From a virus, in the IMG/VR virus record IMGVR_UViG_3300034685_000230, positions 1 to 64,000 of that record: DNA of 64,000 nt. One strand, written 5' to 3'. The stretch's first letter is position 1, and every line of letters starts with the position of its first letter. The notes under the pieces were generated by a model, which saw only the letters and a list, made by a program, of their open reading frames with translations, did not search any database and had not been told where the DNA came from. The position numbers were made by a program, and so were the translations under genes. Of this stretch, positions 2,772 through 30,218 are shown in pieces.

Positions 2772-3356
2772 TTAACTTAAACTTGCTTTACCACTTATCG
2801 GTATATTAAATTGAATAACTGTAGTATTTAAATTTAAATGTATAATTGAACCTTCAAGTACTGAACCAGCTGAATCTGTTATTACAACATTTGGATATCT
2901 ATTTAAATAATGATTTAAAACCCAATATGTTGAAGGAGTTGATTGATTATACACATATTTTTGGGTTATTAAATCAACCTGACCTTTAGTATAATAATTG
3001 TTAATATCTTTTCCATCAACAAAATTAGAATTTTTAGCCAGATCAGCAAATTCAGCATGATTGATTTTACCATCATTATTCGAATCATATCTATTTACAA
3101 TACGGTTATAGGGGTCTTCAATCCATACTAAGTCGTAGTTTTCATCACTATTTTTACTCAGTATGTCACCAGCGTTACCTCCAGGGGGCATACCCTCACC
3201 CGAAGGTCCCTGTGCACCTTGTATACCAGGTGGTCCTTGTATACCAACTTCAATAATATCTATAATTTCGTCAATCACATCAACTATAGTACTTTCTTCA
3301 ATTAATTCAATCGTAGTATATTCATCTACTACTTCAAGTGTGGTATTTTCACTCAT
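2772..3356 (-). CDS. collagen-like repeat virion protein (fibre-associated)
   Basis: G-X-Y run GIQGPPGIQGAQGPSGEG; C-terminal YNQSTPSTYWVLNHYLNRYPNV domain; next to the fibre gene. Confidence 0.6.
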   Translation of the reverse strand: MSENTTLEVVDEYTTIELIEESTIVDVIDEIIDIIEVGIQGPPGIQGAQGPSGEGMPPGGNAGDILSKNSDENYDLVWIEDPYNRIVNRYDSNNDGKINHAEFADLAKNSNFVDGKDINNYYTKGQVDLITQKYVYNQSTPSTYWVLNHYLNRYPNVVITDSAGSVLEGSIIHLNLNTTVIQFNIPISGKASLS

Positions 3357-3357
3357 T

Positions 3358-3717
3358 TTACTCGGTCACCTCAGGTTCAACTACCCATCTACCCCTTATT
3401 AGAGTCTTAAACGGTTTTGCTGGGTCATTCCTGTAGTCTAAACTCCACAAACCGGAGTCGTAGTTAGTTAGAGTTGAAGTAACGTCCTCACCGATGTATA
3501 TTTCTATCGTACCCTCCGCCGGTACCGTGACGATCCCGTTACCCATAGTTAGGGTACAGACAACGTTGTCCTCGCCAAACTCGCGTCGAAACTGCGACTT
3601 AAACTCAAAGCCGGTTAGGTTGATCGGCTCCCTGTACTTATCCTTCCAGCGAAACTTTTTAGTAAAAATCGTTCCCCTCTCAATCTTTAAGAGAACGTTT
3701 TTGCTGGCTAACGGCAT
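3358..3717 (-). CDS. virion structural / fibre adaptor protein (BppU/LtfC-like)
   Basis: IERGTIF..FRWKD..PINLTG..KSQFR..LIRG..VVEPEVT pattern typical of small beta-sandwich fibre adaptors; gene context. Confidence 0.5.
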   Translation of the reverse strand: MPLASKNVLLKIERGTIFTKKFRWKDKYREPINLTGFEFKSQFRREFGEDNVVCTLTMGNGIVTVPAEGTIEIYIGEDVTSTLTNYDSGLWSLDYRNDPAKPFKTLIRGRWVVEPEVTE

Positions 3718-25761: not shown

Positions 25762-26925
25762 ATGCACATAGACAAGGACCTCGTACAGAAGGCTGTCGAC
25801 GAAGCCTTTGAGAAGATCATAAAGGAAAACGAGAGTTACGACGACAGCGAGGTAATATACTCCGACGAGCCTAAGCCGGAGTTGAAAGAGATGCCCGAAG
25901 AGGATAAAGTAGAGGAAGAGGAAAACGTAGAAGACAGGGTGGAGGAAGAGGTTGAGGAAGCCATCGGTGAAAACTCAGACTTTAACTTTCTCGGCTTAGA
26001 CATCAGTATTGAGAAGACCGAGAACGGTAAGTTCAACGTTAAGATAACGAAGGCCGACAAGGAGAAAGTTGAGGTACTAGACGTGGCTGACCTTCCGAAC
26101 ATCCTCGGCTTGATAGAGGACTTCTTCAACGAGTTAGTCTTAGAAGACACAAAGAGCGGTGAGGGTGAGGAAGACGAAGCGGAGAGTGACGAGGAGATCT
26201 CCGAGTTAAACGAGGAAGACGACTCCGACGAGGACGAGCCTGTTGAGCAAGAGTTTGAAGACGAGCTAACCGAAGGCTACCGAGCTTCAGGCTACCACAC
26301 CTCGCTAGCCTCACTGCGAAGAAAATATGGGAGTAGGGTAGAGGAGATTCTAGAGCACGGGTTGCTGGCTAAGGAGTTAGCGCTGGAGATGGTTAAGGGT
26401 AACTTAGTTAAGGGCACAGTTAAGGAGCTAGTCGACACAGTCAGGGAGAAGGACGCTCTGATCGCCGCTAAGAAAACCGATCTGCGGAAGTCAAGCGTTA
26501 GGTACCTCTACGCGAAGAAGATGGAGAGTAGCCTGAAGAAAGCCAGCGCCGTGCTGGGGTCGGCGATCGTTGACTTGAGCAAGCAAGTAAACAGCAGGCG
26601 GGTGTCGCCTGAGTTGGCGCGGAAGGCTGTGAAGAGGTACAAGTCTATCATAGCCGCGATCGTCAACGCTAACAGTCCTAAGACCGTACTGGCTGCTACC
26701 GCCGCGGTGGGTAAGGTACGAAACGCTGTTTTAGCAAATGTTAACAAAAGTAAAATTAAACCCGACAGGAGTAGGAGTGTTAACACTGAGTTTAGGCCGA
26801 GAAATGTACTGAACAGGACTGGAAAGACTGCCAACTCGACTCTACTCTCCGGTAGGCGATATGACGGAATCGACGAGATGAGCGCTGAGATCCTGCGGAT
26901 TGCAGGCATCACTGGTAACAGTTAG
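25762..26925 (+). CDS. prohead core scaffolding protein (gp22-like)
   Basis: Acidic N-terminal half, basic helical C-terminal half ending ILRIAGI; directly upstream of the MCP gene. Confidence 0.6.
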   Translation: MHIDKDLVQKAVDEAFEKIIKENESYDDSEVIYSDEPKPELKEMPEEDKVEEEENVEDRVEEEVEEAIGENSDFNFLGLDISIEKTENGKFNVKITKADKEKVEVLDVADLPNILGLIEDFFNELVLEDTKSGEGEEDEAESDEEISELNEEDDSDEDEPVEQEFEDELTEGYRASGYHTSLASLRRKYGSRVEEILEHGLLAKELALEMVKGNLVKGTVKELVDTVREKDALIAAKKTDLRKSSVRYLYAKKMESSLKKASAVLGSAIVDLSKQVNSRRVSPELARKAVKRYKSIIAAIVNANSPKTVLAATAAVGKVRNAVLANVNKSKIKPDRSRSVNTEFRPRNVLNRTGKTANSTLLSGRRYDGIDEMSAEILRIAGITGNS

Positions 26926-26975
26926 CTTACCAACATTTTAAACTAAACTACATAAACAAGGAGTGTAACGCAACT

Positions 26976-29900
26976 ATGGACAGAAAAGACTACACGGCTC
27001 TCCTGTCAGAGAGAGTCTGGCCCAGGGTTGAGAGACAGCTTTTGGGTGGAATCGCTGACAGGGGGCTTCAGAGAAACTTGAAAACTGTTCTCGCTAACAC
27101 GAGAAACGCGCTTTTGGCTGACACGTCAATGCAGAACATGGTATACCTCAGTGTGGGGTCATTTTAGCGAGAGCTAAAATAGCAAATCGGGTGAATTGCT
27201 GGGACTCTTTAGAGCCTCTAGTGCTACAGCGTAGTCGGTAACGACAAGCGCGAAAGCTCTAAAAAACTTAGAGGATTAGGGAATCAGCAGCCGAGCAGCC
27301 AGTACACTGGTTGAAGGTCCAGAGACTACCGGAGAGATGCTCTTAGTTCTTAAGAGCGAGTTCTCTTAATAACCGGCTAGAGCGCCCGACCCTTAGTTAT
27401 AAAGCTAAGGTGAAGATATAGTCCATCCCACAGCGAAAGCTGCGGACAAGATGCCCGAAAATTGTACTACCGTTAGTTAGACGTCTCAACGTAGGGACCG
27501 CTGTAGGGTAACCTACAGTTGCAAATTCGGTGAATTGCTGGGAGCCTTTAGAGCCCTCGGTGCTACAGCGTAGCTGGCAACGGCAGGCGCGAACGCTCTA
27601 AAAAACCGTAGGGATTAGGTAATCAGCAGCCAAGCTCCCGAAAGCGCAAGATAGTAGGGAGAAGGTTCAGAGACTAGAGGTTGAGCCAGCGCAGGCAATA
27701 ACACCTCCTCGAGCGCCGAATAACTAAAGCAGTATAGCTTTAGTTAATGATATAGTCCACTCTAGGGTGAAAGCCTTAGGTAGAGTGCTTTCCAAAACTG
27801 ATTGCGAATCAGATTATCTCGGTTCAGCCGCTCAACGGACCAACGGGTTATTAATCTAGCTCGTTTAAAATCGGGTGAATTGCTGGGAGTTCCTAAAGCT
27901 CTTAGTACTACAGAGTAGCCGGAAACGGCAAGCTCGAAAGTTTGAAAAACTAAGAGATGCAACAATGGATAACCAGCAGCCAAGCTCCTGAAGGTACATT
28001 AAGAGTATGGAGAAGGTTCAGAGACTAGAGGTTGAGCTAGTACAAGCAATAACACCTCCTAGAGCGCCCGACAAGTATTGAGTACCTTGACAATTAAATA
28101 ATACTATAGATTATATAATAATTAATATAAAAAATATTAATATATTATGGGACAGGTGCTGATCACACTTGATAAATTTAACCCTCATTTATCTTACCAT
28201 AATATATTCAATAAAAAGAGGGTTAATTATGATTCAATGTCCAATATGTAAAAAATATTTTAAGCATATTAATAACATGCATTTAAAAAAACATAATTTA
28301 ACTACTGAACAATTTAAATCATTATATCCTAATTATAATACATGTTCTAAAGAATTTAGTGAAAAACGATCGGCTGCTAATAAAATACAAATGTTAAAAA
28401 TTCATAAAAAAAATCCAAAAGAAAGATATGTTAATGTTGGTATTGGTCGAAAAAAAGCTTGGGATAATTGTTCAGAAGAAAGACGAAAAGAGATAGGGTT
28501 AAAAGCTACTGAATGTTGGAGAAAATATGATTTAAATGAAGAAAATAAACGAAAAAAATATAAAAAAGTTTCTAAATCTCTTAAAAAATATTATAAAAAT
28601 TTAGATCCAAAAGAAAAAGAAAAAATATTGAAAAATAGTTTATTTAAAATTAGAAAACATGGTGGAGCTAAAATAGAAACTAATATTAACGGAAAAATAA
28701 TTAAATTTCGATCAATACCAGAAATTTGGATAGCAGAGTTTTTAGAACAAAGTGGTTTTAGTTGGGAATATGAAACTTTAAAAATTGATTATTTAGACAA
28801 AAATAATAATATGCATATATATATTCCTGATTTTTATATAAAAGATTATAATTTAGTTTTAGAATTTAAAGGTAAAAATTTTCTTGAAGAAGATATTGAA
28901 ATATATAAAAAATACTATACAGAAAAAGCCGGATTTAATTATATTTTATTAATGTATCAAGAAAAATATTTATTATTAAAAGAATTAAAAAAGATTTTTA
29001 ATCTATAGTATTATTTAATTATTAGGTACTCAATACTTGAAGATATAGTCCGTTCCGTAGTGAAAGCTACGGAGTAAAACGTGGATTCGGTTCCTTGACG
29101 CATTTGTTGAACACATTAATCCAGCTACTGGCAACGTAAACATCTACCCCTGGTCTCAGGGTGACAGCACGTACTCTACACCGCAGAATGATTTAACGGT
29201 TGAAATTTCAGCTGATGGTACTGACACAAACTATACTGGAGTACTAAAAGACAGCGATAATAATATACTGGTACCGTCGGAGGGAACGCTCTTTGTGGAG
29301 ATTGAAAGTTCCTCCGGTACGTGGACGAAGATAGCCGAGGCTGACAGGAGTGGAGTGCTTCACTCTCTGAGTTCCGCCTATAAAGTTATAGGTGTCGTTG
29401 ACCCTAAAACACAAGAGTTTGTCGTTAACGTTACAGACTCAGCCGGCACCGTAGTCGGAAAAGCGCTTCGCTTTGCCTTTAAGGAAGACATTCAGAAGAA
29501 CATCCCGTTCGGCGACGGTAAGACCTACAACACGATGCGGTTTGAGATCACCAAGATCGCCGTCGAGGCTAAGACCCGTAAGCTGGGTGCCACGTACAGC
29601 TTCGAGCTCATGGAAGACTACAAGAACGAGTTCGGTGAGAACTTCGAGGACAAGATGGTCGACTACCTAACCACGACTATTCTGACGGAGGTCGACAGTG
29701 AGGTAATCGACACGCTGTTCAGTAAGGCTACCGTAAGCGGTTCTTGGGACGCCACGATGCCGATGACGTGGACTCGCGGTATCAACCAGTGGTACGAGAC
29801 GGTGCTGCCGAAGATAAACAAGCTGAGCAACTACATCTACCAGGCAACCCACGTCTCCGGAGCAACGTTCCTGGTCTGCAGCCCCGTTACGGCTACCATC

Positions 29901-30218
29901 TTCCAGAGCCTGATGCAGTTCAGCGGTAACGGTACGCCGACCGACCAGATGAACGTCGGTACCGTCAACATCGGTACGCTCAGCGGCGTGTACAAGGTGT
30001 TTACGTCGCCGCTCTGCCCCGACAACAAGGTTCTGCTTGGGTTTAAGGGAAGCAAGCCTGAGGACACCGGAGCGGTGTACGCTCCGTACGTTCCGGTACA
30101 GCTCCACCCAATCTACTACTCCGAAGGCATGCCCTCGGTCATGGCCAGGACCCGTTACTGGCTGGGTGTACTGCGGCCCGACTACTACGGGGTACTCAAC
30201 ATCAACGGCACCATTTAG
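26976..30218 (+). CDS. major capsid protein (gp23-like), spliced: join(26976..27148,27454..27486,27788..27848,29082..30218), 467 aa
   Basis: Joined exons read ...MQNMVYL|PKIVLPLVRRL|FPKLIANQIISVQPLNGPTG|WIRFLD..., the conserved gp23 LVRR..P.LIA..VQP..GPTG motif. Exon 4 has VEAKTRKLGA, GAVYAPYVP and MARTRY. Total 1404 nt, in frame. Confidence 0.93.
27149..27453 (+). mobile_element. group I intron 1 in MCP gene (305 nt, no ORF)
   Basis: P1 with U27148.G27156; P GAATTGCTGGGA, Q AATCAGCAGCC, R GTCCAGAGACTA, S GATATAGTCC; P9 GAAA loop; CAT/ATG P9.0; terminal G27453. Confidence 0.92.
27487..27787 (+). mobile_element. group I intron 2 in MCP gene (301 nt, no ORF)
   Basis: P1 GTCTC/GGGAC with U27486.G; same P/Q/R/S cores; CACTCTA/TAGAGTG closing stem; terminal G27787. 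Confidence 0.92.
27849..29081 (+). mobile_element. group I intron 3 in MCP gene (1233 nt) with homing endonuclease ORF in the P8 loop
   Basis: P1 AACGGGTTA/TAGCTCGTT with U27848.G; P/Q/R cores at 27877-28026; S GATATAGTCC at 29042-29051; CGTT/AACG P9.0; terminal G29081. Confidence 0.92.
28229..29008 (+). CDS. intron-encoded homing endonuclease, PD-(D/E)XK type with N-terminal C2H2 finger
   Basis: CPICKK..HLKKH; FRS..E..IAEFL..WEYE..YIPDFY..LEFKG; very AT-rich. ATG 28229 follows AAGAGGG. Confidence 0.8.
   Translation: MIQCPICKKYFKHINNMHLKKHNLTTEQFKSLYPNYNTCSKEFSEKRSAANKIQMLKIHKKNPKERYVNVGIGRKKAWDNCSEERRKEIGLKATECWRKYDLNEENKRKKYKKVSKSLKKYYKNLDPKEKEKILKNSLFKIRKHGGAKIETNINGKIIKFRSIPEIWIAEFLEQSGFSWEYETLKIDYLDKNNNMHIYIPDFYIKDYNLVLEFKGKNFLEEDIEIYKKYYTEKAGFNYILLMYQEKYLLLKELKKIFNL

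Follow-up and report, generated by a model that had tools for sequence, protein, structure and literature searches.

The DNA analysed here, referred to as the window, consists of positions 1-64,000 of IMG/VR virus record IMGVR_UViG_3300034685_000230, an 89,471-bp genome of an uncultured phage rated complete by CheckV. Its capsid locus lies at positions 26976-30218 on the + strand and is interrupted by three genuine group I introns, whose insertion sites are packed within 94 nt of coding sequence. The observation had been made in an earlier note drawn up without database searches (the sequence-only reading) and is confirmed by the present analysis. Considered together, the results make it highly probable that a single gp23-like capsid gene has been split by three introns that are old paralogues, each tied to its own site and passing through a homing cycle there.

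Four exons and three group I introns

The elements of the locus are as follows.

26976-27148, + strand: capsid gene exon 1, 173 nt; codons 1-57 plus CT of Leu58
27149-27453, + strand: group I intron 1, 305 nt, without open reading frame (ORF); Rfam RF00028, 76 bits
27454-27486, + strand: micro-exon 2, 33 nt; C of Leu58, PKIVLPLVRR, CT of Leu69
27487-27787, + strand: group I intron 2, 301 nt, without ORF; Rfam RF00028, 90.1 bits
27788-27848, + strand: micro-exon 3, 61 nt; C of Leu69, FPKLIANQIISVQPLNGPTG
27849-29081, + strand: group I intron 3, 1233 nt, its P8 loop holding an endonuclease gene; matched by Rfam in two halves
28073-28086, + strand: 5' arm of the extended P8 stem of intron 3, a perfect 14-bp complement of 29025-29038
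28229-29008, + strand: intron-encoded endonuclease gene, an ORF of 780 nt (259 aa), 20% GC
29025-29038, + strand: 3' arm of the extended intron 3 P8 stem; the conserved GAAGATATAGTCC comes next (J8/7 and the 3' strand of P7)
29082-30218, + strand: capsid gene exon 4, 378 codons plus stop

Excision of exactly 27149-27453, 27487-27787 and 27849-29081 joins the four exons (173 + 33 + 61 + 1137 = 1404 nt) into an open frame of 467 codons. The resulting 467-aa protein aligns with 16 uninterrupted homologues of 461-475 aa and is free of gaps across MVYL/PKIVLPLVRRL/FPKLIANQIISVQPLNGPTG/WIRF (slashes denote splice junctions here and below). The intron coordinates and the product proposed in the sequence-only reading were thus exact. 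Its assignment of the protein to the gp23 type holds as well: exon 4 matches the Pfam family Gp23 (PF07068) with 167.6 bits (E 7e-49, profile positions 55-347), above the curated cut-off of 24.4 bits, and matches phrog_138, 'major head protein', at 5e-41, while exon 3 matches positions 16-36 of the Gp23 profile. No second capsid gene was found, the Gp23 profile picking up only exons 3 and 4 in the whole 89-kb genome; an intact copy elsewhere, which would have made the locus a relic, is therefore not in evidence. The gene stands in a head module, with a portal protein, a head maturation protease and an acidic scaffold-like protein as neighbours. Since the match is the only one and the neighbours are those of an ordinary head module, this locus is the phage's one capsid gene.

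A GGAG ribosome-binding site precedes the ATG of the capsid gene. If the frame of exon 1 is extended into intron 1, it meets a stop at 27167, and the readthrough product ends after 63 codons. Because no other capsid gene is available, the supply of capsid protein must depend on three splicing events, as the sequence-only reading had concluded. The portion of the protein that carries the introns is well conserved (mean column identity 0.84 over residues 61-90). The idea that it is the most conserved part of the capsid protein was rejected, identity rising to 0.93 around residues 250-290. Megablast with the entire locus against cultured phages gave no matches, and the nearest capsid proteins from cultured phages are less than 35% identical.

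The introns were identified by covariance-model search, a check that had been suggested together with the original prediction. Introns 1 and 2 are matched over 27139-27445 and 27475-27779, respectively, above the 50-bit gathering score of RF00028. In a permissive scan of 27780-29120, intron 3 was recovered as two halves, 27839-28128 (49.1 bits) and 28977-29072 (28.9 bits). Orthologues of intron 3 that are devoid of an ORF score 86-94.5 bits in related phages and are 85-93% identical to the intron 3 core; those of loci L004 and L006 score 86-93 bits at 92-93% identity. An Rfam scan of the whole genome found no group I introns beyond these three.

All three upstream exons end in T and all three introns in G (...GATG, ...AGTG and ...AACG), the terminal G being found in all orthologues too. 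Introns 1 and 2 each split a leucine codon as CT/C, and intron 3 is inserted in phase 0 (GGT/TGG). At the 5' splice sites, ACCU/CA of intron 1 pairs with UGGGGU, placing a U.G pair at the splice site; GUCU/C of intron 2 pairs with GGGAC, and AACGGGU/UA of intron 3 pairs with UAGCUCGUU. P1 helices with U.G are predicted in all 14 introns examined. The ends, the P1 pairings and the RF00028 scores bear out the U.G splice sites and terminal G originally ascribed to the three introns, and the interrupted Leu codons hold as well. Exon and guide sequence change together among relatives. At site 3, AACGGGU with GCUCGUU in the window is replaced by UGCGGGU with GCUCGCA in L007 and by AAUGGGU with GCUCAU in L013 and L014; at site 1, ACCU with GGGGU in the window becomes AUCU with GGGGAU in L014. 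RNAalifold, applied to an alignment of eight ORF-less introns drawn from all three sites, recovered P3, P4, P5 with a long extension, P6, a P7.1-like helix between P7 and P3', P8 and P9, with compensatory change in 36 of the 70 pairs. P7 is present, its strands (GACTA and TAGTC) being invariant, and so contributes no covariation evidence. The extra hairpins of the P7.1 type point to subgroup IA. From these features we infer that the three introns are self-splicing. The guide sequence of each intron would pair with the end of its own upstream exon, and the late transcript would have to splice itself three separate times before the capsid mRNA of 467 codons is obtained; RNA left unspliced would stop after 63 codons.

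Site occupancy and the intron-encoded endonuclease

The protein encoded by exon 4 has many environmental homologues. Of the 60 closest database homologues, roughly a third are cut short and start at FPKLIA/IANQ (site 2) or at WIRF (site 3), a pattern showing that gene callers stumble on introns at these two sites. A survey of 18 viral and 40 metagenome loci showed that the three sites are occupied independently of one another:

Sites empty: L005, L008-L012, L016-L019, L021 and many metagenome contigs
Site 1 only: L020, L028, L029
Site 2 only: L035
Site 3 only: L004, L006, L007, L013, L065 and others
Sites 1 and 3: L014
Sites 2 and 3: L015
Sites 1 and 2: the DNA contig of run X11
All three sites: the window genome

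Among the surveyed loci, the window genome thus shows the fullest occupancy, and only its intron 3 is still coding. Long introns of about 1.24-1.37 kb occur at every site, all with the same kind of ORF in P8, and the states seen across relatives include intact, frameshifted or lost endonuclease genes and the empty site. In L013 (4765-6000) a frameshift splits the site-3 endonuclease gene into two ORFs (141 and 137 aa), and this copy is decaying. In metagenome contig L063 (1-490), the site-3 endonuclease is reduced to its last codons ahead of the intron's 3' end and is preceded by an unrelated structured sequence with repeated hairpins, ending in TAGTTCAC. L015 (IMGVR_UViG_3300044606_000144) is 179,181 bp long, almost exactly twice the 89.5-kb genome; instead of a larger genome, it may represent two copies of a related phage genome assembled head to tail.

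Within the window the intron cores are 61-70% identical to each other. They form one family, clearly diverged, and the description of the three as very similar in the sequence-only reading was overstated. Each resembles its same-site counterparts in other phages much more closely than it resembles the other two. The intron 1 core is 98% identical to that of L020 and 73% to that of L014 at site 1, versus 61-62% to the window's other sites; for intron 2 the values are 92% (L035) and 80% (L015) at site 2, versus 61-70%; for intron 3 they are 92-93% (L004 and L006), 85% (L007) and 77-78% (L013-L015), versus 62-70%. The endonucleases group in the same manner, with 60-96% identity between intact site-3 copies and 30-36% between sites. 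Moreover, intron 3 is 92-93% identical to its counterparts in L004 and L006, where the flanking exon DNA is only 61-75% identical, and intron 2 is 92% identical to that of L035, with 79-84% in the flanking exon DNA. That the introns are far more alike than the adjoining exon DNA indicates horizontal spread. No co-conversion tract, in the form of L004-like exon DNA beside site 3, is evident in these flanks. Since both introns and endonucleases cluster by site, the paralogy is old and, judged from these comparisons, the spread looks endonuclease-driven. The three lineages share an ancestor; reverse splicing and a shift in endonuclease specificity are both possible routes to the neighbouring sites.

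The insert that distinguishes intron 3 sits between the arms of its perfect 14-bp P8 stem and has a GC content of about 20%, versus about 50% in adjoining DNA. The endonuclease gene it carries has a GAGGG ribosome-binding site ahead of its ATG. A sigma-70-like sequence upstream of the gene (TTGACA-16-GATTAT, 28087-28114) was not counted, the DNA being very AT-rich. The N-terminus of the protein contains a CxxC...H...H zinc finger resembling those of ROS/MucR proteins (ROS_MUCR E 7e-4). The C-terminus matches Pfam PF05367 (Phage_endo_I) with 26.3 bits (E 6.3e-06), and the protein also matches phrog_15137, 'endonuclease', and, at E 0.015, structures of T7 endonuclease I. Its segments FRSIPE, IPDF and LEFKG align with FRSGLE, TPDF and VETKG, the catalytic segments of the T7 enzyme. 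In an alignment of 20 family members, E165, D201, E212 and K214 are invariant and the four zinc ligands invariant or nearly so. An AlphaFold model is confident in both domains (mean predicted local distance difference test score, pLDDT, 80.8; above 85 over the nuclease domain). Foldseek returned no matches to the model at E <= 0.001; among its weak matches (E ~0.01-0.2) many, including better-aligned ones, have the restriction-endonuclease-like fold, namely Vsr, the catalytic domain of the homing endonuclease I-Bth0305I, TnsA, T7 endonuclease I and Hjc. Collectively, these similarities suggest that the protein is a zinc finger fused to a T7-endonuclease-I-like PD-(D/E)xK nuclease. Public data hold 484 representative clusters of the family. 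No experimental study characterising it was found, and the architecture appears to be uncharacterised.

Past the end of the window (G000:C1:67247-67396, L027), a 426-aa ORF has the N-terminal zinc-finger module in common with the endonuclease (residues 2-51, 36% identity, E 8e-7). A second mobile endonuclease, equipped with this DNA-binding module as well, may thus be present in the genome.

Under the proposed scheme, each site lineage would have a homing endonuclease in the P8 loop that is specific to that lineage. The conserved site would be invaded, the endonuclease would then decay and be lost, and loss of the intron might follow, with the cycle running separately at the three adjacent sites. 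That the endonucleases would cleave empty sites and so bring about intron homing has indirect support in the position of the gene in a peripheral loop, the site-specific lineages, the variable occupancy and the greater similarity of the introns than of their flanks; the occupancy pattern fits the usual cycle of homing endonuclease genes. A more elaborate version holds that one intron-plus-endonuclease unit was re-targeted twice to adjoining positions in one conserved stretch of the capsid gene, that the site-3 endonuclease, upon cutting intron-free capsid genes of co-infecting relatives, would trigger co-conversion of its ORF-less neighbours, and that the cluster therefore moves as a unit and serves as a weapon in phage competition, with the MucR-type zinc finger and T7-endonuclease-I-like domain constituting an uncharacterised homing-endonuclease architecture. 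We consider this version doubtful.

RNA-library contigs and competing explanations

The RNA evidence consists of Logan contigs assembled from RNA libraries, not of reads. A 1346-nt contig of X19, an RNA run from an anaerobic digester, joins 27148 to 27454 and 27486 to 27788. In X11, a DNA run of the same sample, a contig is unbroken from 26900 to 27731, across intron 1 and into intron 2. All nine of the exon-1 variants are common to the X11 DNA contig and the X19 RNA contig. Removal of introns 1 and 2 from RNA is indicated best by this pair. At site 3, the X19 contig reads CCAACTGGG/TGGATT. X17, an RNA run of activated sludge from a different study, joins 27486 to 27788 and 27848 to 29082 at a depth of 43.7 and also holds the end of exon 1 joined to 27454. 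No exon-skipping joint (27148 to 27788) is present in the RNA-run contigs, which cannot show absence; most of the endonuclease gene is not covered by them, and here too contigs cannot show absence. The sequence-only reading had named junction reads as a check. The exact junctions did appear, in contigs instead of reads, and their existence supports splicing without proving it.

Record 9 of X17, a 366-nt contig, is composed of 27458-27596, 27942-28075 and 29032-29111. Exon 3 is missing from it, and the 5' half of intron 2 runs into the 3' half of an intron 3 that has no ORF. A switch between similar introns during assembly, recombination at the DNA level or an RNA product could each account for it.

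Several points weigh against the interpretation of the locus as a thrice-spliced capsid gene. Logan contigs of RNA libraries can contain DNA, and intron-free alleles exist in nature (L005, P0008), to which the joined contigs could belong. The contigs of X19 and of a further RNA library, X7, read GGG/TGG at site 3, and the strain they represent is probably devoid of intron 3, so that X17 is the only run bearing on the splicing of this intron. Of the three introns, the X7 contig keeps only intron 2; either an unspliced precursor or a strain with an intron at site 2 only could be its source. Intron 3 itself, with 49.1 bits, remains just below the Rfam gathering score, because insertion of the ORF splits it. 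The 26.3 bits of the endonuclease fall below the curated cut-off of PF05367 (29.1 bits), and for this reason the protein is called endonuclease-I-like and not a member of that family. Finally, the three-intron arrangement derives from a metagenome assembly.

The last point raises the question of whether strains with one or two introns were merged in the assembly, no real genome having all three. The same habitats do hold strains with introns at 1 only, 2 only, 3 only, 1+2, 1+3 and 2+3, the introns share repeats, and in X17 record 9 intron 2 (5' half) is fused to intron 3 (3' half). However, the exons between the introns measure 33 and 61 nt, shorter than ordinary reads, and single reads therefore link neighbouring introns. 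In addition, the X11 DNA contig, from a different study, links introns 1 and 2 independently, and 83-100% of the words sampled from the stretch occur in each of four DNA runs belonging to one study (two of these may be the source sample). Runs with small word shares support no habitat statement here unless their contigs were compared with the locus. A chimera is thus improbable. We regard as even less probable a relic locus, with introns that have ceased to splice, a dead capsid gene and a contig that derives from a defective phage. Introns 1 and 2 have indeed lost their endonuclease genes, and the case for splicing comes from sequence and contigs rather than from a direct assay. Nonetheless, the sole capsid gene of a CheckV-complete genome would have to be dead while its four exons are intact and highly conserved, its ribozyme cores retain pairing via compensatory changes, the exact junctions are present in RNA-library contigs, and the same introns persist in several diverged phage genomes.

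The sequence-only reading had favoured recent local duplication, one intron having been reverse-spliced into two nearby sites of the same capsid gene. The single architecture of the three introns, with 61-70% shared core sequence, the insertion of introns 1 and 2 at CT/C in a Leu codon and the confinement of all sites to 94 nt would all agree with such an event. It is nevertheless hard to reconcile with introns and endonucleases that cluster by site and not by genome: same-site introns elsewhere are 73-98% identical, versus 61-70% for neighbours in the window, every site has its own diverged endonuclease lineage (30-36% identity between sites), and one-site and two-site genotypes exist for every site. 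The clustering, the lineages and the mixed genotypes together place the divergence before these phages. Recent duplication therefore appears quite unlikely, and ancient re-targeting, by reverse splicing or by a shift in endonuclease specificity, is possible. A single capsid gene bearing three old, site-bound intron lineages is the explanation retained here.

Comparison with other phages

The arrangement is real and not unprecedented, with Twort orf142, capsid genes of crAss-like phages and the capsid gene of SP-15 as precedents. In Staphylococcus phage Twort, orf142 is described as having three related group I introns (IA2) around a 23-nt exon, and exon skipping was shown (Landthaler and Shub 1999, as given in PMC10136302 and PMC11878797). 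On that description, orf142 and the window gene are alike in that three group I introns interrupt one late structural gene whose product is needed in large amounts, with very short exons between related introns (23 nt in orf142, 33 and 61 nt in the window). The Twort-type layout, in which only a few tens of nucleotides of exon lie between related introns, occurs at the capsid locus twice. Unlike the window gene, which encodes the capsid, orf142 encodes the tail tube, and exon skipping is a feature of orf142. The window also differs from Twort in having endonuclease-bearing versions for each intron lineage and variable occupancy across an uncultured clade.

Capsid-gene introns have been reported as well. 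In crAss-like phages of the Delta and Zeta groups, group I introns occur in capsid genes, one of which is in five fragments (Yutin et al. 2021, PMC7886860). These resemble the window in being major capsid genes of uncultured phages with group I introns, and the five-fragment gene has intron-type endonuclease domains between its pieces. They belong to an unrelated lineage with another capsid family (not Gp23, PF07068), and the introns were found via protein domains, without site-by-site comparison or RNA evidence (PMC7886860). Lactococcal phage Tuc2009 and mycobacteriophage LittleE each have a probable group I intron in the major capsid gene; splicing of the LittleE intron was shown by reverse transcription PCR (RT-PCR), and its ORF is called HNH in the figure legend and LAGLIDADG-like in the text (PMC3706429). 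They differ from the window in having one intron each and capsid proteins of another family.

The gp23-like capsid gene of Bacillus phage SP-15 (KT624200, SP15_032 to SP15_034) is annotated as two joined pieces around an intron ORF. This ORF belongs to the same endonuclease family as that of the window (Phage_endo_I), with 27% identity over 91% of the window endonuclease, and the locus gives a group I signal of 38 bits. SP-15 is a cultured jumbo phage of a Gram-positive host and differs from the window in having a single intron at another position, about 725 nt after the start, within a capsid gene span of 2.5 kb. In view of these cases, the statement in the sequence-only reading that phage group I introns mostly sit in DNA-metabolism, terminase or lysin genes is outdated, and the rarity of the arrangement was overstated. 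In Streptococcus phage vB_SagM-GXN1 (L023, PQ819873; 2130-3615), a group I signal of 34.7 bits begins 2 nt past the annotated capsid stop, and an unannotated endonuclease homologue lies behind it at 3001-3615. From this layout, the capsid gene of vB_SagM-GXN1 is probably split and its annotation truncated. Homologues of the endonuclease in cultured phages thus occupy two capsid-gene contexts, those of SP-15 and vB_SagM-GXN1.

The td, nrdB and nrdD (sunY) genes of phage T4 each contain one group I intron, with endonucleases of the GIY-YIG or HNH type. As in the window, the endonuclease gene lies in a peripheral loop and presence varies among relatives; the T4 introns differ in residing in nucleotide-metabolism genes, one per gene, and in the type of enzyme.

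What this locus adds is a clear view of three paralogous, site-locked intron/endonuclease lineages within 94 nt, their occupancy states, the RNA-library contigs with exact junctions and the apparently uncharacterised architecture of an endonuclease whose family recurs in the capsid-gene introns of SP-15 and, probably, vB_SagM-GXN1. Automated gene callers miss this capsid gene, calling its last exon only, and capsid-based classification and counting of this clade of digester, sludge and subsurface phages are therefore distorted. The locus also provides a compact natural series: three paralogous intron/endonuclease lineages within 94 nt which, across relatives, range from the empty site through ORF-less introns and decaying endonucleases to intact ones. 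Such a series could be used to study how homing endonucleases change target and how tightly packed ribozymes avoid mis-splicing, and to ask whether a late protein needed in abundance tolerates, or is regulated by, multiple splicing steps.

Lastly, the acidic neighbour of the capsid gene is a very acidic 387-aa protein encoded at window positions 25762-26925, between the head protease and capsid genes. It matches none of the PHROG families, and its position suggests a scaffolding protein.

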